Origin: a bacterium
GTDB taxonomy: Bacteria > Auribacterota > UBA3054
DNA: 64,000 bases
Assembly: GCA_017557885.1 (NCBI GenBank)
Contig: JAFYXV010000008.1
Span: forward strand, 66,843-130,842
Reading direction: 5' to 3'
A program made the position numbers and the translations under genes. Positions 17,998-52,825 of the stretch are shown in pieces (position 1 is the first letter of the stretch; each line of letters opens with the position of its first letter). The notes under the pieces were generated by a model that searched no databases, had not been told where the DNA came from, and was given only the letters and a program-made list of their open reading frames with translations.

Positions 17998-19142
17998 ACT
18001 GCTTTCCGGAACTTAAAACTCCGGCTTTCGTCATTACGGAATCCGACCTCATAAAAAACGGCCGGATCCTCCTGGACGTCCAGGAAAAAGCCGGATGCAA
18101 AATACTCTGGGCCCTGAAGTGCTTCGCCATGCCGGAGGCCGCTAAGGCCCTGAAGCCCTATCTAGCCGGCACCTGTGCCAGCGGCCTTTTTGAAGCCAGA
18201 TTCGGGAAAGAGAATTTCGGCGGCGAAAATCACGTTTACGCCCCGGCCTTTTCCGACGAGGATATGGCTGAGATCGTAAAGTACGCCGACCACATCTCCT
18301 TCAATTCCTACTCCCAACTTAGGCATCACAAGAAGACCGTTGAGGGAGCAAACAAAGAGATCAAAGTCGGCCTCAGGATAAATCCCGGCTACTCGGAAGT
18401 CGAGACCATGATCTACAACCCCTGCGCCCCCTACTCCCGTTTCGGCGTCAGCGAAAAAGACTTGGAAAAAGAAGGCGTAGCTGAGATCTCCGGATTGCAT
18501 TTCCACACCATGTGCGAACAAAAAAGCGACGTGCTGGAAAGAACGCTGGAGGTCGTCGCCAAAAAATTCGGACCTTTCCTCCGCGACCTTGAATGGCTCA
18601 ACATGGGCGGCGGACAATTGATCACGAAGCCTGACTACGACCGGGAACATCTCATAAAGCTCATCAGTGAGTTCAAGACCGCCTTCGGCCTTAAGACGAT
18701 CTATCTCGAGCCCGGCGAGGCCGTGGCCGTTGACGCGGGATATCTCGTGACAAGCGTCCTGGACATCATAGAAAACGGCATGCCAATAGCTATATTGGAT
18801 ACCTCCGCCGCCAACCATATGCCGGACGTTCTGGAAATGCCTTACCGCCCCTGCATAATCGGCTCCGGCGAACCGAAGGAATTTCCCTACACTTACCGCT
18901 TAGGCGCCCTGACCTGCCTGGCCGGCGACTATATCGGCGACTACTCCTTCCCAAAACCGCTGAAAGTTGGCGACCGCTTAGTCTTCACCGACATGGCGAT
19001 CTATTCCTTCGTCAAGACCTGCATGTTCAACGGCATCAATCTTCCATCCCTCGCCTACCAAAAAGAAAACGGCGAAATAAAACTTGTCCGGGAATTCACC
19101 TACGAAGACTATGCCGGCAGATTGGGAGAAAAACTATGCTGA
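17976..19142 (+). CDS. nspC: Carboxynorspermidine/carboxyspermidine decarboxylase
   Basis: GTG start overlapping the upstream gene by 22 nt; 388 aa, PLP-dependent decarboxylase-like sequence; context with the dehydrogenase. Confidence 0.8.
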   Translation: MANQALLNCFPELKTPAFVITESDLIKNGRILLDVQEKAGCKILWALKCFAMPEAAKALKPYLAGTCASGLFEARFGKENFGGENHVYAPAFSDEDMAEIVKYADHISFNSYSQLRHHKKTVEGANKEIKVGLRINPGYSEVETMIYNPCAPYSRFGVSEKDLEKEGVAEISGLHFHTMCEQKSDVLERTLEVVAKKFGPFLRDLEWLNMGGGQLITKPDYDREHLIKLISEFKTAFGLKTIYLEPGEAVAVDAGYLVTSVLDIIENGMPIAILDTSAANHMPDVLEMPYRPCIIGSGEPKEFPYTYRLGALTCLAGDYIGDYSFPKPLKVGDRLVFTDMAIYSFVKTCMFNGINLPSLAYQKENGEIKLVREFTYEDYAGRLGEKLC

Positions 19143-19972
19143 ATTTTCTGGAATCCGAATTCACGCCCGCCAAGCCCGACAAAGCCGCTTTCCACATCAT
19201 TCCCGCTCCCTATGAAAAAAGCGTCTCCTACGGCTCGGGAACAAAGCTTGGCCCCAAGACCATCATAGAATCCTCCCAGCAGCTTGAAAAGATCCAGCGC
19301 GGCAAGAAGCCCGGAGCGAAAGGCATATATACCGCTCACCCCGCCTCCACTCTCAAAGCAATAGAGAAAGCCGTCTCCTACGCCATTGCGTGCAAATCCC
19401 TGCCCTTTACCCTGGGAGGCGAGCACACAGTCACCCTCGGCGCCATACGCGCCTTAAAAGCGCGCCTGGGCTCTGAAATTGGCCTCATACAGTTCGACGC
19501 TCACGCCGATCTCCGCTTCGCTTACGAGGACAATCCCCTTTCCCACGCCTCAGTCATGCGCCGCGTCAGCGAACTCGGGATCCCAATCGCCCAATTCGGC
19601 ACCCGCTCCTATTGCGAAGAAGAGCAAGCCTACAGGAAAGACAGGAAAAACAAAATTACTTTCCACGACGCCGAGGAACTCTTCCTGCGCTTCAAAGAAA
19701 ATAGGAAGACAAAACTTCTTCCCGCAAACTTCCCAAAGAAGATCTACCTTTCCTTCGACATCGACGGCCTAGACTCCTCCATCATGCCCGCCACCGGAAC
19801 GCCAGTTCCCGGAGGCCTCCTCTGGTACCAGACCTTAAGCCTTCTTACTGAACTCACCAAAGGCCGAACTATAATCGGCATGGATCTCGTGGAATACGCC
19901 CCCATCAAAGGCTTCCACGCCTACGACTTCACCGCCGCCACCCTGGCCTACGAAATGATGGCTTTGGTTTGA
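19136..19972 (+). CDS. speB: Agmatinase-like ureohydrolase (arginase family)
   Basis: Mn-binding motifs GGEHTVTLG, DAHADL, SFDIDGLDSS; pathway context with polyamine genes. Confidence 0.75.
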   Translation: MLNFLESEFTPAKPDKAAFHIIPAPYEKSVSYGSGTKLGPKTIIESSQQLEKIQRGKKPGAKGIYTAHPASTLKAIEKAVSYAIACKSLPFTLGGEHTVTLGAIRALKARLGSEIGLIQFDAHADLRFAYEDNPLSHASVMRRVSELGIPIAQFGTRSYCEEEQAYRKDRKNKITFHDAEELFLRFKENRKTKLLPANFPKKIYLSFDIDGLDSSIMPATGTPVPGGLLWYQTLSLLTELTKGRTIIGMDLVEYAPIKGFHAYDFTAATLAYEMMALV

Positions 19973-19991
19973 CGATCGCAAAAGCATAAAA

Positions 19992-20032
19992 AGACAAAAG
20001 CAGCGATGGATTTCCCATCGCTGCTTTTGTCT
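19992..20032. terminator. Bidirectional terminator hairpin (18-bp perfect stem)
   Basis: AGACAAAAGCAGCGATGG-loop-CCATCGCTGCTTTTGTCT between convergent genes ending at 19972 (+) and 20053 (-). Confidence 0.6.
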
Positions 20033-20052
20033 TCAAACAGTAATAAACCTGC

Positions 20053-20262
20053 TTACTTGTTTTCTTCCTCTTTGCGTTTGGCAAGCAAAGCTTTCAAATC
20101 ATCAAGAGTCTTGTACTCATGATGCTTTTCCTTTTGGTATTCCTTAACGGCTTCCTTGGCCCAAATCTCATCCTGATAGTCTTCGGCAGCATCAGCATCT
20201 CCGCAGGGCATCACAACGACCTTGGATTCCAAATCATCTGTTTTAATCTTGGCCTTTCTCAT
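20053..20262 (-). CDS. Small acidic hypothetical protein, possible cognate partner/antitoxin of the upstream toxin
   Basis: 69 aa; ATG overlaps the toxin stop (ATGA); no recognisable HTH or RHH motif. Confidence 0.4.
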   Translation of the reverse strand: MRKAKIKTDDLESKVVVMPCGDADAAEDYQDEIWAKEAVKEYQKEKHHEYKTLDDLKALLAKRKEEENK

Positions 20263-20552
20263 TTCAACCTCCTGTATATTTCCTTTCTGTTATCGATCTT
20301 GATCACTTCGACTGTTATTATATCATCAATGATATTATACACGCACCTGTATTGCCTAAATCTGAAACGATAATAAGAACTGTTTTTTAATTTTTTTGCA
20401 AATGGAATCTGAGCATATGGATTTCTCAATACGATCTCCAATTTGTTATAAAACAATCTTATATCGGATGTGGGCAATGTCTCCAAAAACTCAAACGCTT
20501 TTTTATCAATTTTCAGTTTATAAATATTATCACGAAAATTTTTAAAAAGCAA
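20259..20552 (-). CDS. RelE/ParE-family type II toxin (mRNA interferase-like)
   Basis: C-terminal YRFRFRQYRCVYNIIDDIITVEVIKIDNRKEIY matches the RelE/ParE pattern; N-terminal region YKLKIDKKAFEFLETLP...NPY; apparent TTG start. Confidence 0.65.
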   Translation of the reverse strand: MLFKNFRDNIYKLKIDKKAFEFLETLPTSDIRLFYNKLEIVLRNPYAQIPFAKKLKNSSYYRFRFRQYRCVYNIIDDIITVEVIKIDNRKEIYRRLK

Positions 20553-20876
20553 TTAAAAGAATCATAAACAACGATACAATTCTTCTTGAATCTCTGTGAA
20601 AGTTAGATTTGATGCTGCGCATTTCGTTTTACCTCCTGTGTCCATGCGTTAATTTGATTTTTCACATGTTAGCAGATAAAATTCAATGTACAAAGCATTT
20701 TTGAAAAAACTATTATTTACAATAGTCAAAACAATAAAAATTTAATTCGTATAGTCGAATAAGCGTTTTAGCGCTAGCAACAAAAATAGCCGTGACCTTC
20801 TCGCTAACAAAGGTCGCGTTTTAAAAAGATAAATTGCCTTCAGTCCGCGCGGCCGGCTATGATCTTAGGGCCGGTC

Positions 20877-20905
20877 TTGCTTTTAAAATCGGGTTTAGGT
20901 ATAAT
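20877..20905 (+). promoter_or_regulatory. Putative sigma70-type promoter for rpmE
   Basis: TTGCTT - 17 nt - TATAAT about 45 nt upstream of the rpmE ATG. Confidence 0.4.
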
Positions 20906-20948
20906 ATTCTCTACCTTAAAAAATAACTATAACTGATTAGGTTCAAGT

Positions 20949-21152
20949 ATGAAAGAAAAGATCCATCCTAACTACGAACAGACGACCATCACCTGCGCCT
21001 GCGGCCACGTTTTCAAAGTTGGCACCACGGTAAAGGATATGCACATCGGCATTTGCTCCGAATGTCACCCCTTCTTCACCGGTAAGCAGAAATTTGTCGA
21101 CACGGCAGGCCGCGTCGAGAAGTTCAACCGTCGTTACGGCAAAAAAGACTGA
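20949..21152 (+). CDS. rpmE: 50S ribosomal protein L31
   Basis: [64 protein letters not shown] with Cys zinc ribbon. Confidence 0.95.
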
Positions 21153-34273: not shown

Positions 34274-35395
34274 TTAGTGATAAATTTTCTTGATTCCGGG
34301 ATGCCTGTGGATGTGGCTCTCTCTTTCTCTCTCCCTCTCCCAGAGGCTCAGCTTCTTCCTCTCGGGCGGTTCGGCGTCTTCTTCATCCAAAACTTTCTGC
34401 CATTTAGCCAGCGCTAAGGGATCAGCCATGGGCTCTTTGGTCAAGGGATAAAACACCCTCTTCTTCAGCCCGTTGCAAAAATCGTCGAAACTTCCGGCCC
34501 ATTTGTCGCTGACATAGAGATTTTGAAAGCTGTTGCGGAAGCCGGAATTCCCGCCTTTTACGGTTTTTATGTATTCCACGAATTTTGGTTCGCTTGCCAG
34601 GAATATATTGCTGACCAACGCTCTCGACTGTATGGTGAAATAAAGCTTCTTTTCCAGGTCGTCCATCTTGGGAGGCCAGAAGAGGTCGGTTGGCAGCAGC
34701 AGCTTGTCTTCCAGAAGGTAAGGCAGCGTGACGATCCTGCTCGGCTCCACCACCGCGTTCAGGCGGGAACAGTGCGCGCAGAACCCTACTCTCAGCGCGT
34801 CGCAAAGCTCTCCCTCGGGATTGACGCTGTCCATGTATTCCTTCAGGATCATGCTGGCCACGCCGTATTTCATGCTGTTTCCCAATTGCAACCTGTTGCC
34901 AGGAGTTGCGCAGACCAATACGGAGCGGGCCTTGCTGTCAACGGAAACGTTGTCCGCAGGAGTTAGACCATCCTTCCCCTTCAGGGCCGCAAACAGCTTG
35001 GGATCGGTCAAAACATAGATCTTGCAGCGATCGTCGGAAAAATCAAAGATATCTCCAGCCTGCAGTTGGGTCAAGGTTTTTTGAAGAAAGTTGATCAGAT
35101 CAATGCTGATCGGGATAAATTTATAGTATTGGAAAGTGTCTGTTTCCTTGAGCATATTGACATGTTTTTTAATTTCTTCCTTTTCCCCCTCTTCCGAAGA
35201 AATAACGACTGTTTCTTCCTCGAAAAAGCCCTGGCATTTTTTTGGAAAATAAAAAACAAAAAAATCCGTCTTCCAGCTCTTGTAACCCTCGCCTGCGCAA
35301 ACCGCTTCCCACCGATCCGCGCCGGCACCGCGAACGTTGATCGGCAGAAGAAACGCCGCAGCCAAAAGGCATAATATCAGTTTTAAGGAGCGCAT
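34274..35395 (-). CDS. Secreted hypothetical protein (first gene of the minus-strand glycan-degradation cluster)
   Basis: Signal peptide MRSLKLILCLLAAAFLLPINVRGAGA; no recognised domain. Confidence 0.5.
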   Translation of the reverse strand: MRSLKLILCLLAAAFLLPINVRGAGADRWEAVCAGEGYKSWKTDFFVFYFPKKCQGFFEEETVVISSEEGEKEEIKKHVNMLKETDTFQYYKFIPISIDLINFLQKTLTQLQAGDIFDFSDDRCKIYVLTDPKLFAALKGKDGLTPADNVSVDSKARSVLVCATPGNRLQLGNSMKYGVASMILKEYMDSVNPEGELCDALRVGFCAHCSRLNAVVEPSRIVTLPYLLEDKLLLPTDLFWPPKMDDLEKKLYFTIQSRALVSNIFLASEPKFVEYIKTVKGGNSGFRNSFQNLYVSDKWAGSFDDFCNGLKKRVFYPLTKEPMADPLALAKWQKVLDEEDAEPPERKKLSLWERERERESHIHRHPGIKKIYH

Positions 35396-35557
35396 GCTGG
35401 ATGCTCTTTCTTTGACGATTAAAATAAACTTTACTAATTAAATCAATTATAGCATAAGAAATGTTGTCTTTTTGTTTTTCTTTGCGAACAGATCGGGCTG
35501 GCCAAAAGGGCGGGACTTTCTGATATAATAAATAAAATTAAAATAAGGAATGATCTT

Positions 35558-36619
35558 ATGTTGGAACAAATCGCTAACGAATTGGAAAACCTTAAGAAGG
35601 AAGCGACTTCCGCCATCGAAGCCGCCGGCAGCACGGCGGAACTGGCGGAGCTTGACATCAAATATTTGGGACGCAAGGGCTCCTTCGCCGCTTACATGTC
35701 CCGCATGAAAGACCTTTCCAATGAGGAAAGGCCCTCTTTCGGCAAGATCGTGAACGAAGCCAAGACCGCCGTCTCCACGGCTCTTTCCGACCGCCGCATC
35801 GCCCTTTTGGTGGCGGAAGACACCGCCAAACTGAAAAAGGACAGGATCGACGTGACGCTGCCCGGGCGCTTCGCCTCGGTGGGCTCCATTCATCCAACCT
35901 CCGCGGCTTTGAAAGAGATCTCGGATATCTTCCTTCGTTTGGGCTTCACCATTGAGGAAGGCCCGGACGTGGAGGATGAATGGCACAACTTCGACGCCCT
36001 CAATATTCCCGACACCCATCCGGCCCGCGACGTGCAGGACACCTTCTTCGTGAAGTCCCCCAAGGAAGTCGCCGAGTCAGGCAACAAGATCCTGATGCGC
36101 ACCCACACCTCGCCTGTGCAGGCCAGGACCATGGAAAAGCAGCAGCCTCCCATCCGCTTCATAGCGCCCGGCAGAGTTTACCGCAACGAAAGGATCGACG
36201 CCTCCCACTACACCATCTTCCATCAGATCGAAGGATTATATGTGGACAAGAACGTGACCTTCGCGCAATTGAAGGGAACCTTGATGAACTTCGCGAAGAT
36301 CTACTACGGCCCGCAAGCCTCCATCAGGCTGCGCCCGGGTTTCTTCCCCTTCACTGAGCCTAGCGCTGAAGTTGACATCACCTGCACGGTCTGCGGCGGC
36401 AAAGGCTGCAGCGTCTGCAAAGGCACGGGCTGGGTGGAAGTTTTGGGCGCCGGCATGGTCCATCCCAACGTCTTCAAAGCCGCCGGCTACACTGATCCCG
36501 ATATCACGGGCTACGCCTTCGGATTGGGCGTCGAGCGCCTCGCGATCCTAAAGTACCGCATCGACGACATCCGTCTCTTCTACGATAACGACATCCGCTT
36601 CCTGGAGCAGTTCATCTAA
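35558..36619 (+). CDS. pheS: Phenylalanine--tRNA ligase alpha subunit
   Basis: Class II aaRS motifs (FPFTEPSAEVD, GAGMVHPNV...GLGVERLAIL) and zinc-ribbon-like CTVCGGKGCSVCKGTGW. Confidence 0.95.
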   Translation: MLEQIANELENLKKEATSAIEAAGSTAELAELDIKYLGRKGSFAAYMSRMKDLSNEERPSFGKIVNEAKTAVSTALSDRRIALLVAEDTAKLKKDRIDVTLPGRFASVGSIHPTSAALKEISDIFLRLGFTIEEGPDVEDEWHNFDALNIPDTHPARDVQDTFFVKSPKEVAESGNKILMRTHTSPVQARTMEKQQPPIRFIAPGRVYRNERIDASHYTIFHQIEGLYVDKNVTFAQLKGTLMNFAKIYYGPQASIRLRPGFFPFTEPSAEVDITCTVCGGKGCSVCKGTGWVEVLGAGMVHPNVFKAAGYTDPDITGYAFGLGVERLAILKYRIDDIRLFYDNDIRFLEQFI

Positions 36620-46286: not shown

Positions 46287-47609
46287 CTATCTACTTTGTT
46301 TAAGGATTTCAGAAATGATCTCGTTGAGATGTCCTGAGTTATTGGGCATGGCATCCCCTATTATGTAGTACCAATAATCTTTTTCTCTCTGGTCAAATGG
46401 CTTTTTATAATATTCCGCTATCTCCTCCGCCCACTTTTTCAAAATTTCCGGCTCCTTGGGATCCGTTCCCAGGAAGCGTACGGAGCACTCGGCGTTTTTC
46501 AAAGCCTTTTCCAAGCCCTCTTCGGCGGAAAGATTTCTGTCGTAAGCGTCTTTGTTCGCTTCCCACCAAGTCAGGACTTCTTTTTTTTCGACTTTATGAC
46601 CAAGCGACGCTTTGTCCATTTCCAAAAACAAAAGCGTTTCGTCGCCAGCATTCAAAGCTTCATATGAAAACGGCATAAGAAAAACTTCAAAGGAATGATA
46701 ATCTCTTGCTAAACCTTCAAGCACCGGTTCTCTCGCCCCATGCCTTTTAAATTCAGAAGTCCAGCAAGCGTACCATTCTTCCCAAAAATCTTTGGCATAA
46801 GCTCTGCCAATGAACCAGAAAAATCTTTGAGCTAAGCTGTTGCCTTGACCGCCAACGTCAAATTGTCCGTTTTGGCAATCTGTTTTCCTCCAGGCACCTG
46901 CAAAATCATGTTTGTCAAGACATGAAACCACGCCGTGCCCGCAATTAGGTTTCAAAAGATTCCAGCACCAGTTAAGATTGTTGGTGCCTCCGTTCGCTTT
47001 TTTTACAGCCTCGACGTCTTCATTAGCCAGCTTCTCCAATGCGTCATAGTTCATCTTTAAGCGGTAGGCGGGCCGCATGGTTTCCAATTCAAATGAATTG
47101 GGAGCGTTTTTTGCCATATCTTTCGCATAATCCACCAGCATGTTTTTCCATCCTTCCGCAGAAAAATTCTCAACCAGGCGGTAGCGAAGGAATTTTATGT
47201 TTTTGACAGAATTTGTTTTGTGTTCCACATTGCCAAAAAGCACAGGCAATTTGTTTCCATCAACACCTGTCAGAACTTCAAGTTTAGCTGAAGAATGCAA
47301 CAATCCGTCTCTGCTTCCCGGATCTGCAAAATCCACGTCGCAGCTAACAGTGAAGGATGCTTTTCCGGAAGGCGCTTTGACAAAAATATAAGAACCGCTG
47401 GAAACTGCTTCGGCGTCCACTATATCATGCCATTTGACGCGATAAATATAAGAATCGTCCAACCCGTCTAATACAACTTTATACTTAGTTACGGAGCCGC
47501 TCAAAACATAGCAGGGGCCTTCTATTTTGGCACCATATTTATCTGCAAAGACTGAAAAGCAAAAAAGTATAGCAAATAAAAAAAGTATCTTAGCTGTCTT
47601 ATTATCCAT
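46287..47609 (-). CDS. Secreted hypothetical protein encoded in a low-GC (about 45%) segment
   Basis: Signal peptide MDNKTAKILFLFAILFCFSVFA; Cys/Trp-rich central region (NLNWCWNLLKPNCGHGVVSCLDKHDF); no recognised domain. Confidence 0.5.
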   Translation of the reverse strand: MDNKTAKILFLFAILFCFSVFADKYGAKIEGPCYVLSGSVTKYKVVLDGLDDSYIYRVKWHDIVDAEAVSSGSYIFVKAPSGKASFTVSCDVDFADPGSRDGLLHSSAKLEVLTGVDGNKLPVLFGNVEHKTNSVKNIKFLRYRLVENFSAEGWKNMLVDYAKDMAKNAPNSFELETMRPAYRLKMNYDALEKLANEDVEAVKKANGGTNNLNWCWNLLKPNCGHGVVSCLDKHDFAGAWRKTDCQNGQFDVGGQGNSLAQRFFWFIGRAYAKDFWEEWYACWTSEFKRHGAREPVLEGLARDYHSFEVFLMPFSYEALNAGDETLLFLEMDKASLGHKVEKKEVLTWWEANKDAYDRNLSAEEGLEKALKNAECSVRFLGTDPKEPEILKKWAEEIAEYYKKPFDQREKDYWYYIIGDAMPNNSGHLNEIISEILKQSR

Positions 47610-47669
47610 AAAAACTGTCCTTCCTCACATGACGCGAAGCGTTGAGATTAGTTTATTTAATTCTACCAG

Positions 47670-47709
47670 AAAAAAAAAAAAGCAAGGCGCGCTGAAAAGC
47701 GCGCCTTGC
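47670..47709 (-). terminator. Rho-independent terminator for the giant PEP-CTERM gene
   Basis: GCAAGGCGCGC-tgaaaa-GCGCGCCTTGC hairpin; minus strand followed by T12. Confidence 0.7.
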
Positions 47710-47731
47710 TTAATTCGCTTATCGTTCGCTC

Positions 47732-50700
47732 TTATTTTCTGCGAAGAACGGCTATGCCGAGAAGAGCCAGCAGGAAGAGCGCGGCGGGTTCGGGGACCAC
47801 GGGCGTCAGCTTGACGCTCACGCTTTCCACGCAGACACTGTCGTTGGCAGTGCTGAGGAGCATCCTGAGGGCGTCCACGCCTTCCGTAGCCTTGACGGAG
47901 CCGCTGGTTATGGGCGCGTCAACAACGACAGGATCAGCGGCCCAGGTGAATTCCCTGAACTGCTTGTTGCCGGTCTTGGTGTTAAGTTTGACGGCGTAAT
48001 CGAAAGTTTCGCCGACGGCCGGTCTGGCGGTGGCCAAAGCGGTGGCCGGAGAGTAATCGTTGAAGGTGGGGACAAAAGCGTCGCCGCTTCTGGAGACTAC
48101 GACTTTCATCTGCCTGTGCTCGGAGTCCTGAGTGAGCGTCAGGTCGCCGGCAGGAGCTTTGGTGAAGAGCAGCTTGTAAGCGATCTCAAGATCGTATTTG
48201 TCAGCGATGCCTTCGCCGATGCCGAGAGCGTAGAAGAGGCCGCCTTCGCCGGCCGTGGGATTCTCGGAGGTCTTGGCGTATTCCAGAACGAGGCCGTCGG
48301 AGAAGGTCTGGCTCAAGTCTCCCCTGTCGGTCGCAATGGCTTCGACTTTCAGATCGTCGATATCGAAGGTGCCTTCGCCCCACTGGAAGAAGCGCAGAAT
48401 GGAGAAGGTCTGCGTCTCGTTCTCCTGGTCGCAGAGATATTCGCCGGATTCTTCGTTATTGCCGATCCTGACCTGTCTGAGGACGTGGCGGGCATGTCCT
48501 TCGCTGTCCGTAATAGTGTCGGCGCTGAAGACGGCGCTGAACTCGGTCCACTCGTCCTTTGCGATGGCGTTCTCGGAAACGAATTCCGGATGCGTCTCGT
48601 CGGACTTGTTGCTGGCGAATCTGTAGGATCCGTCGTCATAGCGGAACTGCGTTTCCACGCACTGCGGCGTCCAGAGGCCGAGGTTCTTGGCGGTGGTTCC
48701 GCCCAGTCTAACTTTGAAGCTGACCTTGAAGAAGCCCTTGGCTTTGCCGCTGGCCGCGACCCAGTCGTTGTCCAAAGTCTTGTCCAGCTTCTTGTGGATG
48801 CCGAAGAGGCCGGTAATATCTTTCAATCTAAGATATTTGTTGCCGTTCTCTTCTTTGACGATGGTGCTGCCGTTGACGTCGATGGCGCCGTAGGCCACGC
48901 TCCAGTTGTCCTCGCCGCAGAGATCCTTGCCGTTTTCATATTTCTCAAAGTCTTCCGTAAGCAGCGTGTCGTAAACTTCCCAATCGGCGGTGCTCTTAAT
49001 TTGGGCGTTGACGTCGGCTTCGCCCTTTATGTTCCGGTCGAAGAATCTGGGATCGCCCTTGGGGAACTCGGCGAAATTGGCGCTGTAAACTTCATAGCCT
49101 TTTTCCGGAGTGCCGTTGGGAGCGCCGACTCTGAAAGTGCCCTTGCCCGCTTCGCCGAGATCGATAGTTGCCAAAGTGGAGGCGTACTTCGCTTCCGCAG
49201 GCAGCGTCTTGGGCGTCACCTTGATGGACTGGAATCTCTGGAAGGTGCCGCTCGCAGGCTCAGCCCTGAAGAGATCTTCGTTCTCGAAGGAAACGCTGAA
49301 GTTGGCGGTGGTGCCAGGCAGTTCGTTGGTGATCGTGATCGTCCCGTATTCCTTGGAGAAGGTGATGGGGTCGTAATCGAGGGCAAGTATGGGAACGGAC
49401 TGCTTTTTCGGGGTGAGCTTGGCGTCCACCGCTCCCACGCGGGCCTGGCCGGAACTGAGGGAGAACTTGATCTTGTCAATGGCAGTTGTAGCGTCAGCGC
49501 CGGTAATAGGCAGATTCTCCTTGTAATAGGTGCCGTCCCAGTAGAGCTGCCTCAGGTTCTTCTCGGTGGTAGAGATGTCGTAGCCATAGGTGAACCATTC
49601 GCCGGCGTTGGCTGTGAAGGTGCCCTGCACGCCCTTGACGTTCGAATAAGTCAGGTTGACCTTGTTCTCGAAAAGCCTGAATTCCGTGGCAAACTGCTTG
49701 TGGAAGTCGTCCTGCCCGAAAGTCAGCGCTCCGTTGAAACCGGAGGGAAGCATCATCTGGGCGGCCACGGTGATGTCGTACTTCTTGGCCATGGCTTCCG
49801 TAAATCCCAGTTTGATTTCGACCGAACGCCCGTTATCGTTGCCTAAGAAGAGATCCATGGGATCCTCGTCCGGGAAGTCCAGGGTGTCGTAATCGGTCTC
49901 GGAAACGATGGTCTCGACTTTCAGATTGTCAAGGCAGAAGGTGCCGCTGCCCCAGAGGAAGAAGCGCAAGGTGTTGAAGAAGTCACTGTTGCTGCTCTGA
50001 TCGAGGAAAGCTTTGCAATTTTCAACCTTGTCGCCAACCTTGTACTGGCGCAGGATGTGGCGGTAGTTGTCCCCGGAAGCATCCGACACGGGCTTCGCCT
50101 CTATGATCATGCTGACTCTCGTCCAGCTGGCCTGGGAAATGTAATTCTGGGAAACGAACTCCGTATGGTTGGCGTCGCTGGCGTTGCTGCGGAAGCGGTA
50201 GCCGCTGCCGTTGACATACTCGAAGTTGCCCTCCACCATCTGGGGATCCCAGAGTCCGAAGAACTTGCTGGAAGTGCCGGTCAGCATGGCGTCGAAGCTG
50301 ATGCGGAAGTAGCCTTTGGCGTGGCCTTCCCACCAGTTGGGCTTCATCTGGACGTCCAGCTTTTTGTGGGCGCCGAAGAGATTGTTGACGTAGGCGATCT
50401 CGCAATATCTGTTGCCGAATCTTTCCCTGACGTAGATCGATCCGTCCCTGTCGATGGTGCCGTAGCCGCTTCCCCAGCCGCCGACGCCGCCAAGGTTGGT
50501 GTTGCCGGGATAATCTTCGAAGTCTTCGTCAAGCAAGACTTCCGTAACGTAGTGGTCGAAAGCGTAGTCAAGGTTGCCGCCGTTTTCCCAGAGGCAGTCG
50601 TAATCGCCGGGATTGCCTTTCGGGAACGTGGAGAGATCGGCGGAGTAGAGGCCGTAGCCGTCAGTTTCGTTGCCGCAGGGCGCGCCGAGGCGCACTCTCT

Positions 50701-52825
50701 TCGTGCCGGCGTAACCGGCTTCCACTTCCACCACGCATTCCAGGAACTGGGGAGTGGTGGGAAGATCGAAAGCTTCCACCTGGATCGTGGCGTCGCTCTT
50801 GAAAAGGCCTTCCACCGGGGAGATCGTGAAGTGATCGGCGCCTTTTACGATCTTGGCTTTATATTTGATGGTGGTGTTCTCGTGGCAGTTCGTCAGAGCG
50901 ATGGCGGTAAGGGTGGAGCCTATTTCCATCGGCTTGGCGGAAAGCTTAAGTTCGCCGATGCCGCAGTCCACATGGATGTCGTCGAAGTCGGCACCGCCCG
51001 AGCTGACGTCCTTGAGCCAGACAGAGCTGATGTAAACGTCGTCGGAGCCCGCGACGTAGCATTCGGTCGCGCTGTGGTACTCGTTATTGACGGACCAGCC
51101 AATGAACTCCTTGCTGTTTTCGTCAATAAAGAAGGTCCAGGTCTGCCAGCCGGTACTGATCTGCTGCAGAGTGGTGGATTTGTTGACGCTGCCGCCGGGA
51201 GTGGAAGAGCAGGCCAGGCTCAGCTTTCCGTCGCTGGTGACGTAAGCGTAGCAGAGAGCGTCCTTGGCGCCCCTGATGTCGAAGTAGGTGCCGCCGAAAG
51301 TCGGCTTGACCTTTACGCTGACCTTGTAGGTGCCGTATCCGTTGTCGGACTTGACGTTGACGGGAACCTGGAAGCCGTTGCCGCCCTGGCTGTGAAGGTA
51401 ATAGTTGCCGTTCTGTTCCTTGATCTGGCCGGTGGCGCTAAGATTGATTATGCCCTGTTGCCAGGTGGCGTCGCCCAGATAGAAGTCTTCGTCCGCTTCA
51501 AATCCGCAGTTGAATTCGGAAAGCACGGGAGGCGTGCGGTACAGAGAGGCGTACTTCCTGATCTTCTGCCAGACGGTGGCGCATCTGGTCTTGCTGTTGT
51601 AATAGACCGCGGAGCCGCCGTACTGGAGAAATTGTTCGGAGAAATAAGGCACCCTGTAGCCGTAGTAGGTGCCGTTCCAGCTGCCGTGGTAGGTCATGAT
51701 GGAAAGGCATCTCTGGGTAAGGTTGGTGGCGTAGAAGTAGCAGCCCAGGCTGTGTCCGAAAAGACCGCCGTCCGACGGTCCGGGGCTGCTCGACTGTTCG
51801 GCGGAGTGGTTGCAGCCCATGTTGTGGCCCCACTCGTGGACCCAGGAAAGATCTTCCAGATAGCTGTAGAGCACGATGTGGAAACCGCAGCCTTCCGCGC
51901 CGGTGGGGCTGCCGTGGACATAGCCTAAACCGGCCCAGCCGGAAGTCATGTATCTCGGGGCGTAGCAGACGAAGTCGGCGCCCAGCTTGTCCCTCAAGGC
52001 GGGCACGAACTCGAAGCCTTCCTTGCCCTGCTGCATGCGGGAAAGGTCAGTGCTCGAGTCCTTCGTTTCCTCGTAGTCGCAAAGGTAAGTGCCGACGCAG
52101 GTCAGCTTCGCTTTTATAAGGCTGTTCTGCATGGCCTGGTTGCAGACCGCGATGCCGGCGGCCACCTTCGTGTTGGCGGCTTCCAGACTGCCGGCGGACT
52201 CGATGGATTGGTTGGAGAAGAGGACAATGATGGTCAGCTCCACCACTTCGTCGTCGTCCCAGTTGGCGGCCCAGGCGGACTGCTCGGGAGTAAGGTCAGC
52301 GGCGGGAACGCCGAAGCTGGAAATAGAGTTCTGTTCCTCCCAGACGGGCGCTTCGTGATCCTCCGGATTGGACATCTGGGCGCAGCGCTCGCTGTAAGAA
52401 CATTCCTTAACTTCGTAAACGCCTTTCTGCTTGGTGCCGCTGATCTCGTAGCGGGCGTCGGCCGTAAGGTCTTCCACAACGCCGAAAAGCACGTTGGGGC
52501 CGGCCGCGATGCGCCACTGGCCGGCGAAATTGTCCAGATTACCGGCCCGGCAGACGATGCCGTTCACGTCTTTGACAGCGTAAGTGACGTCGCCCTTCAG
52601 TTCGCCCTGGGGCGTCAGGAAAGTCACCCTGTCGCCTATTTTAAGCTCGGCTAGGGCGAACATAGCGTTCTCGACCTTCGGCTCAGGCGCACTGGGGTAC
52701 GTCGAGAAAATTTGGGCTGTCTGAGCCCCGCTGGGGTCAAGAGTAAGGCAGAAATCCGCGGCGAAGGACGTCGCGGCAAAGATGACCGCGATAACGGCGG
52801 CCAGGATCTGGTAGTGCTTGCGCAT
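47732..52825 (-). CDS. Giant (1697 aa) PEP-CTERM-anchored secreted protein with N-terminal metzincin-type zinc metalloprotease domain and internally duplicated beta-rich domains
   Basis: Signal peptide MRKHYQILAAVIAVIFAATSFA; HEWGHNMGCNH (HExxHxxGxxH); two homologous roughly 200-aa modules (LLDEDFEDYPGNTNLGG...DNLKVE and LLTEDFEKYENGKDLCG...DDLKVE); C-terminal VPEPAALFLLALLGIAVLRRK. Confidence 0.75.
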   Translation of the reverse strand: MRKHYQILAAVIAVIFAATSFAADFCLTLDPSGAQTAQIFSTYPSAPEPKVENAMFALAELKIGDRVTFLTPQGELKGDVTYAVKDVNGIVCRAGNLDNFAGQWRIAAGPNVLFGVVEDLTADARYEISGTKQKGVYEVKECSYSERCAQMSNPEDHEAPVWEEQNSISSFGVPAADLTPEQSAWAANWDDDEVVELTIIVLFSNQSIESAGSLEAANTKVAAGIAVCNQAMQNSLIKAKLTCVGTYLCDYEETKDSSTDLSRMQQGKEGFEFVPALRDKLGADFVCYAPRYMTSGWAGLGYVHGSPTGAEGCGFHIVLYSYLEDLSWVHEWGHNMGCNHSAEQSSSPGPSDGGLFGHSLGCYFYATNLTQRCLSIMTYHGSWNGTYYGYRVPYFSEQFLQYGGSAVYYNSKTRCATVWQKIRKYASLYRTPPVLSEFNCGFEADEDFYLGDATWQQGIINLSATGQIKEQNGNYYLHSQGGNGFQVPVNVKSDNGYGTYKVSVKVKPTFGGTYFDIRGAKDALCYAYVTSDGKLSLACSSTPGGSVNKSTTLQQISTGWQTWTFFIDENSKEFIGWSVNNEYHSATECYVAGSDDVYISSVWLKDVSSGGADFDDIHVDCGIGELKLSAKPMEIGSTLTAIALTNCHENTTIKYKAKIVKGADHFTISPVEGLFKSDATIQVEAFDLPTTPQFLECVVEVEAGYAGTKRVRLGAPCGNETDGYGLYSADLSTFPKGNPGDYDCLWENGGNLDYAFDHYVTEVLLDEDFEDYPGNTNLGGVGGWGSGYGTIDRDGSIYVRERFGNRYCEIAYVNNLFGAHKKLDVQMKPNWWEGHAKGYFRISFDAMLTGTSSKFFGLWDPQMVEGNFEYVNGSGYRFRSNASDANHTEFVSQNYISQASWTRVSMIIEAKPVSDASGDNYRHILRQYKVGDKVENCKAFLDQSSNSDFFNTLRFFLWGSGTFCLDNLKVETIVSETDYDTLDFPDEDPMDLFLGNDNGRSVEIKLGFTEAMAKKYDITVAAQMMLPSGFNGALTFGQDDFHKQFATEFRLFENKVNLTYSNVKGVQGTFTANAGEWFTYGYDISTTEKNLRQLYWDGTYYKENLPITGADATTAIDKIKFSLSSGQARVGAVDAKLTPKKQSVPILALDYDPITFSKEYGTITITNELPGTTANFSVSFENEDLFRAEPASGTFQRFQSIKVTPKTLPAEAKYASTLATIDLGEAGKGTFRVGAPNGTPEKGYEVYSANFAEFPKGDPRFFDRNIKGEADVNAQIKSTADWEVYDTLLTEDFEKYENGKDLCGEDNWSVAYGAIDVNGSTIVKEENGNKYLRLKDITGLFGIHKKLDKTLDNDWVAASGKAKGFFKVSFKVRLGGTTAKNLGLWTPQCVETQFRYDDGSYRFASNKSDETHPEFVSENAIAKDEWTEFSAVFSADTITDSEGHARHVLRQVRIGNNEESGEYLCDQENETQTFSILRFFQWGEGTFDIDDLKVEAIATDRGDLSQTFSDGLVLEYAKTSENPTAGEGGLFYALGIGEGIADKYDLEIAYKLLFTKAPAGDLTLTQDSEHRQMKVVVSRSGDAFVPTFNDYSPATALATARPAVGETFDYAVKLNTKTGNKQFREFTWAADPVVVDAPITSGSVKATEGVDALRMLLSTANDSVCVESVSVKLTPVVPEPAALFLLALLGIAVLRRK

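Follow-up and report, generated by a model that had tools for sequence, protein, structure and literature searches.

A probable horizontally acquired RelE-type toxin-antitoxin cassette, with an antitoxin lacking a DNA-binding domain, in the agmatinase-rpmE spacer of an uncultured rumen bacterium

In a 64,000-nt stretch of contig JAFYXV010000008.1 (assembly GCA_017557885.1, positions 66,843 to 130,842; hereafter the window), which stems from an uncultured rumen bacterium of the Auribacterota lineage UBA3054, the gene of an agmatinase and the gene of ribosomal protein L31 (rpmE) are separated by 976 bp of intergenic DNA. The spacer holds an AT-rich island with two overlapping genes on the minus strand, the first encoding a RelE-type toxin and the second a 69-amino-acid (aa) partner protein. 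We consider the island likely to be a self-contained type II toxin-antitoxin cassette of horizontal origin, which pairs the toxin with an antitoxin without a DNA-binding domain and is attenuated for the toxin in this genome. Feature coordinates are collected in Table 1; related loci in other genomes and contigs carry L numbers and related proteins P numbers.

The composition of the island sets it apart from its surroundings. Over 200-bp intervals the guanine-cytosine (GC) content is 28-43% at about 20,000-20,900, compared with 49-62% (mostly above 51%) in the flanks, and the island itself (19,997-20,855) has a GC content of 35.2%. The lowest-GC 800-bp segment of the whole 64 kb also falls here (33.9% versus a mean of 54.5%, standard deviation 4.1%), about 20 points below the window mean. 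The next-lowest stretches, 46,951-47,750 (41.6%) and 34,801-35,600 (43.6%), were rejected as comparable islets, as each is part of a long gene for a secreted protein (of 440 aa and 373 aa, respectively). An earlier note, made from the letters of this DNA alone, had described an AT-rich island between agmatinase and rpmE, and GC scans, open reading frames (ORFs) and empty sites in related genomes confirm it; the fall in GC is real, but it starts from flanks of about 54-56% and not from the 60% given there.

The first gene encodes a toxin of the RelE type. The window ORF matches the Pfam family PF05016 (ParE_toxin; 24.1 bits, cut-off 23), which is also precomputed for the homologue P0003, as well as PHROG 1213, 'RelE-like toxin' (1e-17 and 2.7e-19). 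Using phmmer, the protein could be aligned over its full length to E. coli RelE and archaeal RelE. In the alignment to 4v7k, R60, R80 and Y84 fall on RelE R61, R81 and Y87, R53 on K54 and Y51 on K52, and R53, R55, R60, R80 and Y84 are invariant in the family alignment. An AlphaFold2 model built with three sequences (predicted local distance difference test score, pLDDT, 83.4; predicted template modelling score, pTM, 0.73) has the predicted topology E-H-H-E-E-E-E-H, in agreement with a RelE-type alpha/beta fold, in which two N-terminal helices pack against an antiparallel sheet of four or five strands. Its top Foldseek matches are RelE structures (template modelling score 0.66-0.77, E-values 5e-6 to 5e-4), led by 1wmi, 4fxh, 4fxe, 9g12 and 4v7k (0.69-0.77; 0.74-0.77 without 9g12), while HigB and ParE structures match more weakly. 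The family matches, the residue alignment and the model together argue for a RelE-type rather than a ParE-type toxin, within the RelE/ParE family that had been proposed for it. Because the equivalents of RelE Arg61, Arg81 and Tyr87 are kept, the toxin would be expected to cleave mRNA in the ribosomal A site. NCBIfam and the PADLOC models gave no match for the toxin.

Counted from an upstream TTG, the toxin ORF spans 20259..20552 on the minus strand and 97 aa, the length given in the earlier note, which turned out to be a mechanical extension. The three database clusters related to it (P0001-P0003) and the toxins of all other cassettes start with MY(K)..., and the corresponding window frame reads MYKLK... 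over 88 codons from position 20525; P0001 (88 aa, 99% identical to the window toxin) has an ATG exactly where the window has an ATT.

The partner gene begins within the toxin stop, with an ATGA overlap at 20262-20259 that had been noted before and agrees with the ORF coordinates. Its product has the reported 69 aa, but its acidity is only mild (18 D/E versus 15 K/R, counted by eye). Hidden Markov model searches with both ORFs, which the earlier note had proposed, assigned the first to PF05016; for the partner, Pfam, NCBIfam and PADLOC gave no match and PHROGs no significant one, in line with the reported lack of a helix-turn-helix (HTH) or ribbon-helix-helix (RHH) domain. A profile search with the partner returned 30 clusters, all of 43-86 aa and all without a Pfam domain, with only two informative source names, one being 'hypothetical protein' for Candidatus Termititenax and the other a label that is obviously spurious. 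In an exhaustive HMMER search of 1.84 billion representatives, only 23 partner clusters were found at E <= 0.001, none of them with a recognised DNA-binding domain. This is a genuine but rare family, and a tblastn search of PLSDB plasmids with the window partner gave no match. HTH, RHH, AbrB and complete Phd/YefM domains are absent from 26 of 26 family members. Conservation is highest in an N-terminal P-K-F-V-V-L-P-F-G-D and where a helix starts, at D-Y-x-D-E-L-W-A.

Profile comparisons using hhalign related the partner to a known antitoxin group. Against phi644-2 gp69 alone the partner family gave a probability of 51% (E 1.5e-4), against a profile of eight HigA-like phage and plasmid antitoxins 92.7% (E 4.4e-7), and against the N-terminal part of this profile only 95% (E 3e-8); the controls remained at 0.1% for the reversed template and at <=1.6% for 30 column-shuffled templates. 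The alignment runs from Met1 of both proteins to just before the HTH, continuing weakly to about residue 60. All eight HigA-like proteins carry HTH_3 (PF01381) in the C-terminal half, and three of them also have weak Phd/YefM matches in their N-terminal modules. Since the alignment has these limits and passed these controls, the partner appears to be the stand-alone N-terminal module of HigA-like antitoxins, without the HTH, rather than an orphan fold. The partner type had been called atypical, which holds in that HTH and RHH are missing and the family is unannotated, but not in that the protein corresponds to a HigA-like module.

Weaker resemblances were followed up as well. Sub-threshold matches to Phd/YefM (PF02604; 11-15 bits, cut-off 29.8) occur in 12 of 26 family members, all at profile positions 27-61 and with the first 26 positions of the profile missing, and five of 26 match the C-terminal half of DUF6290 below threshold. 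Comparison of the partner family with actinophage YefM-like antitoxins was colinear but not significant (Prob 1.7-3.4%). The partner was therefore not taken as a truncated Phd/YefM protein or as the C-terminal half of DUF6290, the register being consistent but the scores far below threshold and the hhalign result not significant; both seem to be distant resemblances only. Sequence searches of the PDB with the partner profile returned chance matches (YadA, SMAD MH1) and nothing else.

Toxin and partner recur as a pair, a toxin of 86-88 aa followed by a partner of 60-71 aa, at a range of sites. In L001-L006 the pair lies within prophages, flanked by the small terminase gene and ninG, on the opposite strand; in L013 and L014 it adjoins a PfkB kinase gene, and in L098-L102 it follows aroA. 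It also occurs in other contexts (L104-L107) and on short contigs without an informative neighbour (L015, L016). Among 41 loci with a partner relative in JGI metagenomes, a full toxin lies upstream in 31 and a 5'-truncated toxin in six, three are cut by contig ends and one has none, which places a toxin or its remnant directly upstream of the partner in 37 of the 38 informative loci. Across loci, the partner start overlaps the toxin stop or lies within a few bases of it. Between cassettes, synonymous divergence (pS) is 0.62-1.0 (saturated) and non-synonymous divergence (pN) 0.10-0.40 for both genes, with 0.69-1.0 and 0.19-0.40 for the partner alone. As pS is saturated and pN low, both genes are coding and constrained, toxin and partner alike being under purifying selection.

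Incomplete copies were also found. An intact partner follows a 5'-truncated toxin in L135, L138, L140, L146, L149 and L159. In four separate 50%-identity clusters (P0040, P0041, P0043, P0049) in-frame deletions have fused the first 10-20 toxin residues (MYKIVMTEK...) to the helical part of the partner (...DYxDELWAEKAV...). Orphan partners are present in L017 and L103. In L017 (784-987), a 1.4-kb metagenome contig, a lone partner adjoining an ORF6N gene stands behind the cassette promoter and its Shine-Dalgarno (SD) sequence, with the toxin precisely missing. L103 (Candidatus Termititenax dinenymphae, BGZP01000007.1) is a dense toxin-antitoxin array with PemK, PIN, DUF4160/DUF2442, ParE and HicAB, in which P0030, a 60-aa homologue of the partner, is flanked by a ParE pair and a PIN gene, without a toxin of this type directly upstream. 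Decay seems to run one way, the partner being retained where the toxin is truncated or deleted, as would be predicted for a toxin-antitoxin pair; the survey was seeded with the partner, and cases with a kept toxin and a lost partner were not sampled.

Table 1. Features of the agmatinase-rpmE spacer and its flanks in the window (SD, Shine-Dalgarno sequence).
Feature	Position	Strand	Remark
Agmatinase (arginase family), left flanking core gene	19136..19972	+	PF00491, 198 bits
Inserted island, outer limits	19973..20876	.	no counterpart in related genomes (blastn and alignment)
Direct repeat, left copy, 12 bp, TAAAAAGACAAA	19987..19998	+	repeat search
Cassette intrinsic terminator	19991..20033	-	19-20-bp perfect stem, minus-strand T-tract; terminator scan and inverted-repeat search
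Partner gene, putative antitoxin, 69 aa	20053..20262	-	GGAGG SD at about 20272-20268; ATG overlaps toxin TGA
RelE-type toxin gene, 88 codons and stop	20259..20525	-	start codon ATT at 20525-20523
Predicted promoter P2: TTGCTT, 17 nt, TG-n-TAATAT	20524..20552	-	-10 overlaps first two bases of toxin start
Nine in-frame codons from upstream TTG	20526..20552	-	outside the family's protein; homologues start MY(K)...
Upstream ORF of 26 codons (MRSIKSNFHRDSRRIVSLFMILLIAF)	20542..20622	-	SD AGGAGGT at 20637-20631; stop 17 nt before toxin start
Predicted operon promoter P1: TTGTAC, 16 nt, TG-n-TAACAT	20666..20693	-	conserved with L013
Inverted repeat CTATT-N6-AATAG, candidate operator	20710..20725	-	upstream of P1
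Hairpin GACCTT-N10-AAGGTC, then T-rich run	20794..20815	-	in cassette-specific right arm
Direct repeat, right copy, TAAAAAGATAAA	20822-20833		11/12 identical to left copy
rpmE promoter TTGCTT, 17 nt, TATAAT	20877..20905	+	intact, kept in all relatives (filled/empty-site alignment)
rpmE (ribosomal protein L31), right flanking core gene	20949..21152	+	PF01197, 107 bits

Syntenic loci were located with the agmatinase protein, whose relatives include Kiritimatiellia, Lentisphaerae and Verrucomicrobiota, in uncultured rumen metagenome-assembled genomes (MAGs) of buffalo, goat, sheep and yak. The agmatinase relatives, taken with a putative PEP-CTERM-type signal elsewhere in the window, hint at a host from the PVC group. 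Six relatives with flank DNA identity of 79-92% (L018, L019, L020, L021, L022, L024) have an empty site: the alignment ends at 19,960-19,977 and restarts at 20,851-20,876, these points being just 11-40 bp apart in the relatives, and hardly any sequence separates the agmatinase stop from the rpmE promoter. As agmatinase directly precedes rpmE in these six related rumen genomes, the island is an insertion, whose right limit falls just upstream of the rpmE promoter. The insert proper is likely to extend from about 19,999 to 20,833. The 12-bp direct repeat, of which L018, the closest empty site, holds a single ATAAAAGACA, is possibly a target duplication, although it is short and AT-rich and could be due to chance. 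Neither the window ORFs nor a tRNA scan revealed an integrase, a transposase or a tRNA near the island. Integration into a tRNA gene was dropped as an explanation, since the whole window contains only three tRNAs and none of them is near, and a structured RNA element was dropped because a permissive Rfam scan of the island gave only sub-threshold matches on the terminator hairpin.

This hairpin (19,991-20,033) had been read as the agmatinase terminator. As it has no counterpart in the island-free genomes and its T-tract is on the minus strand, it came with the cassette, though it may also stop agmatinase transcription. The right arm of the island (20,726-20,876) is not common to other cassettes.

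A seventh species (L023, related rumen MAG RGIG9765) has another insert of 1.7 kb in the same spacer (L023:2042-3730), with a RelB-family antitoxin (96 aa, PF04221) and a PIN_3 toxin (134 aa, PF13470) in antitoxin-first order with a 4-nt overlap, and a 149-aa DUF1016_N fragment. Toxin-antitoxin cassettes thus seem to have landed repeatedly in the agmatinase-rpmE spacer. Six empty sites, a different insert in the seventh species and homologous cassettes in prophages substantiate the horizontal acquisition suggested in the earlier note. No donor element emerged from searches for partner relatives in GenBank phages, PLSDB plasmids and IMG/VR, and two island 23-29-mers had no exact match in IMG/VR. 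It is extremely improbable that the relatives have lost an ancestral segment: the lack of a mobility gene and of a clean target duplication would be in agreement with such a history, but it needs six independent precise losses, or one ancestral loss and a wrong phylogeny, and is at odds with the low GC content, the low strain divergence described next and the homologous cassettes found in prophages and other unrelated contexts.

Six short metagenome contigs (L007-L012) have the same island junctions as the window. Their flanks are 93-95% identical to the window (L010: 99.7-100%), while the island shows 99.3-99.5% identity in all six, and is about 10-fold less diverged than the surrounding core genes. 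This low divergence suggests a recent spread, a sweep or transfer between strains. Inside the island, no differences separate four or five of the other strains. In a comparison of the seven strain sequences, four changes over about 860 bp occur in the window copy only: the leader has lost 1 bp and carries an A-to-G change, G is replaced by T at 20,523, and one Val of the partner has become Ala. Two changes are private to L010, one of them in the predicted operon -10 box (A to G at position 2, TAACAT to TGACAT, equivalent to window position 20,670). In L007 (1740-1862) the 3' end of the partner gene is unlike that of all other strains (...DDLKKDISKNLEVAK) up to the contig end, which is either an alternative partner C-terminus or an assembly chimera.

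The G-to-T change at 20523 affects the toxin start. ATT is found in the window genome only, while all six other strains have ATG, including L010 with its nearly identical flanks. Neither the ATT nor the upstream TTG (20552) is preceded by an SD sequence.

The closest characterised analogue of the cassette is HigBA2 of Vibrio cholerae. This module has inverted gene order and a toxin with a RelE-like active site, and the N-terminus of HigA2 folds on the toxin whereas its C-terminal HTH binds the operator (PMC5416850, PMC11006873); VcHigA2 neutralises the RelE-like HigB2 via its N-terminal disordered segment (PMC5416850). The cassette shares with it the toxin-first operon, a toxin with RelE-like fold and active site and, judging from the HigA-like match and the model, presumably a disordered N-terminal neutralising segment. 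The two differ in that the HigA2 segment folds as helix then strand, whereas in the partner the conserved strand motif comes first, and PDB searches with the partner profile or gp69 gave no sequence match to HigA2 chains. Compared to the HigBA family in general, inverted order and a RelE/ParE-superfamily toxin are present, but the Xre-type HTH antitoxin is not: the partner ends where the HTH_3 of its relatives begins, and the NCBIfam model antidote_HigA does not match the window partner.

HigA-like Xre systems are found in Burkholderia phages (phi644-2 gp70/gp69) and on plasmids of Piscirickettsia, Haematospirillum, Pantoea and Shewanella. They are toxin-first, their toxin is 36% identical to P0003 and the first approximately 27 antitoxin residues (M-x-x-[IV]-Q-[FV]-I...P-x-F-x-V-[VL]-P) match the partner; those antitoxins continue into HTH_3, while the partner stops before it. 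In actinobacteriophages, RelE-like/'RelB-like' (Phd/YefM) pairs such as genes 29/28 of Gordonia phage Bunnybear have toxins up to 45% identical to P0003, the same toxin-first order and a 4-nt overlap. The partner is colinear with the second half of their antitoxins, which are full Phd/YefM proteins (54.9 bits), but lacks the first approximately 26 profile positions. In all 126 annotated phage records of related toxins, the toxin comes first and overlaps the downstream gene by 4 nt; this gene encodes a full Phd/YefM protein in Gordonia/Mycobacterium phages and an HTH_3 protein in Burkholderia phages. In Piscirickettsia the overlap is about 20 nt, and elsewhere the toxin lies just upstream of the antitoxin. 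The toxin-first order, which had been considered atypical, is thus normal for this clade, from Gordonia, Mycobacterium and Burkholderia phages to proteobacterial plasmids. The RelBE systems of E. coli and archaea (4fxe, 1wmi) provide the closest solved structures to the toxin model, with the catalytic Arg/Arg/Tyr kept, but they are antitoxin-first and RelB is an RHH repressor to which the partner has no similarity. An antitoxin-first order with an ATGA overlap was also seen on an unverified human-faeces phage contig (L112:35-468, MT837714.1), where a related RelE-like toxin (41% identity to P0003) follows a 60-aa acidic ORF without a Pfam domain.

For the function of the cassette we propose the following sequence of events. 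After its insertion into the short spacer that separates agmatinase from the rpmE promoter in one uncultured rumen species, the cassette would be transcribed from the minus strand, toxin first, yielding the 88-aa RelE-type toxin and the 69-aa antitoxin. The latter would be a stand-alone HigA-like (more distantly Phd/YefM-like) N-terminal module, a strand motif PKFVVLPFG followed by the helices DYxDELWA..., without a DNA-binding or dimerisation domain, that is probably disordered when free and folds onto the toxin by analogy to V. cholerae HigA2. In this role the partner is predicted to bind and neutralise the toxin. An antitoxin without a DNA-binding part is unlikely to repress its own promoter, and an excess of antitoxin would probably result from its own strong SD sequence, the missing SD sequence of the toxin and an antitoxin-only mRNA, the two genes being coupled by the ATGA overlap.

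A GGAGG SD sequence precedes the partner in every cassette. The toxin lacks one in the window, in the relatives from the rumen clade and in prophage copies; in a few cassettes elsewhere an SD-like GGAGG or GAGG stands before it. Two promoters were predicted. P1 would serve the operon and has a counterpart in L013 (TTACAA, 17 nt, TGATAACAT), where a CTAC-N8-GTAG takes the place of the inverted repeat that the window has upstream of P1. From the position of P2, its transcript would let only the partner be translated, and extra promoters for the antitoxin are known from reverse-order modules (PMC7167474, PMC6918082). A P2-like arrangement (TTGxxx/17 nt/TGnTAnnAT) ending 2 nt into the toxin ATG is present in L013, L015, L098, L125 and L126, which form the rumen clade with the window; the layout is conserved despite differing spacer sequences. 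The prophage copies have TTGACA/17 nt/TATAAT 7 nt before the toxin ATG, a position that suggests a leaderless toxin mRNA.

Several observations weigh against our interpretation. Toxicity and neutralisation are predictions from sequence. The Pfam score of the window toxin exceeds its threshold by just 1 bit, and codon 57 (20,355-20,357), three residues before the catalytic Arg60, is Arg in all copies of this species where every other family member or phage relative compared has Gly (RFRFGxYR); the toxin may have been weakened species-wide by Arg57 before the start codon changed. The confident profile match of the partner covers its first 27 residues only. Its AlphaFold2 monomer model is poor (pLDDT 67, pTM 0.32), with residues 1-22 unstructured and low-confidence helices at 23-44 and 53-68; such disorder would be expected of an antitoxin that folds on its target, but is no proof. 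P1 and P2 are both unlisted in a promoter scan of the region and represent consensus matches in AT-rich DNA, and the layout differs in other clades of the family. The cassette has no recombinase, transposase or clear att site to explain its insertion. As to the loss of the start codon, the G-to-T change at 20523 could be an assembly or sequencing error, and some translation from the ATT or from the in-frame TTG at 20552 may persist, conceivably by ribosomes that re-initiate after leaving the upstream ORF, whose stop is 17 nt short of the toxin start.

On balance, we favour that in the window copy the toxin is silenced or strongly attenuated and the antitoxin intact, and an early step of decay is the most likely state of this cassette. 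The window strain and L010, which keeps the toxin ATG, may have lowered toxin expression by different mutations. The earlier note had called the pair possibly novel or decaying, and both words found support, the partner family being unannotated and very rare and the toxin start mutated here only. ATT is a known though rare start codon in bacteria, for example in infC. A cassette that is still fully working, with the toxin made from ATT or the upstream TTG and the start change only tuning expression, is a lesser possibility, but one to be taken seriously. This rare precedent, the otherwise intact toxin frame with its catalytic residues, the open 97-aa frame from the TTG and the consensus SD sequence of the upstream ORF, stopping so close to the toxin start, agree with it; the ATG in all six other strains and in every other family member and the lack of an SD sequence before ATT or TTG do not, and four private changes in about 860 bp, against the identical other strains, fit relaxed constraint better.

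A second alternative concerns the role of the pair, which might act mainly in phage-host conflict instead of addiction; copies in the chromosome or in a prophage would then abort or exclude infection by other phages, free-standing phage antitoxins serving as counter-defence. The cassette is a moron-like unit in prophages, the toxin family is classed among morons in PHROGs, an antitoxin lacking a DNA-binding part would be easy to deploy in trans, and L017 offers a lone partner beside an ORF6N gene. We nevertheless hold this to be rather unlikely: neither protein matches a PADLOC model, no partner relative was found in IMG/VR or, by tblastn with the phage-type partner P0008, in GenBank phages, and the same reading is compatible with an addiction role. 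More speculative still is a joint reading, in which the partners (60-71 aa) form a class of 'bare' antitoxins without DNA-binding and dimerisation domains and the agmatinase-rpmE spacer is a dedicated landing site; we regard it as improbable. If the first part were true, the class would circulate in gut anaerobes (rumen, termite gut) and their phages, with its RelE toxin and also alone, in the form of orphan copies and toxin-deletion fusions, and would work in trans as an anti-toxin or anti-defence factor. If the second were true, the spacer would capture a RelE pair here and a PIN/RelB pair in a sister species without a recombinase in the cassette.

It is also quite improbable that the cassette is a three-part system with a separate regulator, either a host factor or the product of the upstream ORF, that controls the operon in the manner of PaaR2. 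PaaA2 of an E. coli O157:H7 prophage is a small antitoxin without a DNA-binding domain, and its paaR2-paaA2-parE2 operon comprises three genes, with a separate regulator, the antitoxin before the toxin and a gyrase-poisoning ParE toxin. The partner resembles PaaA2, which is named in PMC7167474, in its small size, the lack of a DNA-binding domain and its occurrence in prophages, but no conserved third gene accompanies the cassette. The partner without a DNA-binding domain, the inverted repeat kept in position upstream of P1 in the window and L013 and the strongly initiated upstream ORF of this species would all suit such a regulator. Against this, no third gene is conserved beside the pair across contexts, the near-consensus promoter of the prophage copies abuts the toxin and leaves no room for an operator gene, and the upstream ORF has just 26 codons and is present in all seven strain copies of this species but in no other cassette. 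Lying between the operon promoter and the toxin, this ORF was also rejected as the remnant of an RHH antitoxin or as a conserved third component, for the leader (20,526-20,665) is unlike that of any other cassette. Least convincing among the alternatives for the partner is that the second gene is no antitoxin at all, being a small regulator or an unrelated co-transcribed gene next to a solitary RelE-like gene. Its lack of a curated family match and the low-confidence model leave room for this, but we judge it very improbable given the pairing in 37 of 38 informative loci with adjoining start and stop, the match to the non-HTH part of HigA-like antitoxins and the retention of the partner wherever the toxin is truncated or deleted, an asymmetry expected of an antitoxin.

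As a toxin-antitoxin cassette, the island is a known kind of selfish module; what is new is an unannotated, DNA-binding-free variant of the HigA/YefM-type neutralising module. Type II antitoxins normally consist of two parts, one DNA-binding and one toxin-binding, and the partner family appears to be the toxin-binding part alone. The cassette thereby offers a compact natural test of how antitoxin excess is reached without autoregulation and of the minimal protein needed to silence a RelE toxin. With filled, empty, other-cassette and lost-start states, the locus is moreover a clean case of a toxin-antitoxin cassette in a housekeeping spacer and useful for studying the arrival and decay of such modules.

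Two minor observations were made along the way. In the five contigs with the pair after aroA (L098-L102), a 45-codon gene follows the partner in all cases (e.g. L098:3231-3368). Elsewhere in the window, the minus strand at 47,732-52,825 encodes a secreted protein of 1697 aa with a C-terminal signal that, by eye, looks like the PEP-CTERM type (VPEPAALFLLALLGIAVLRRK).

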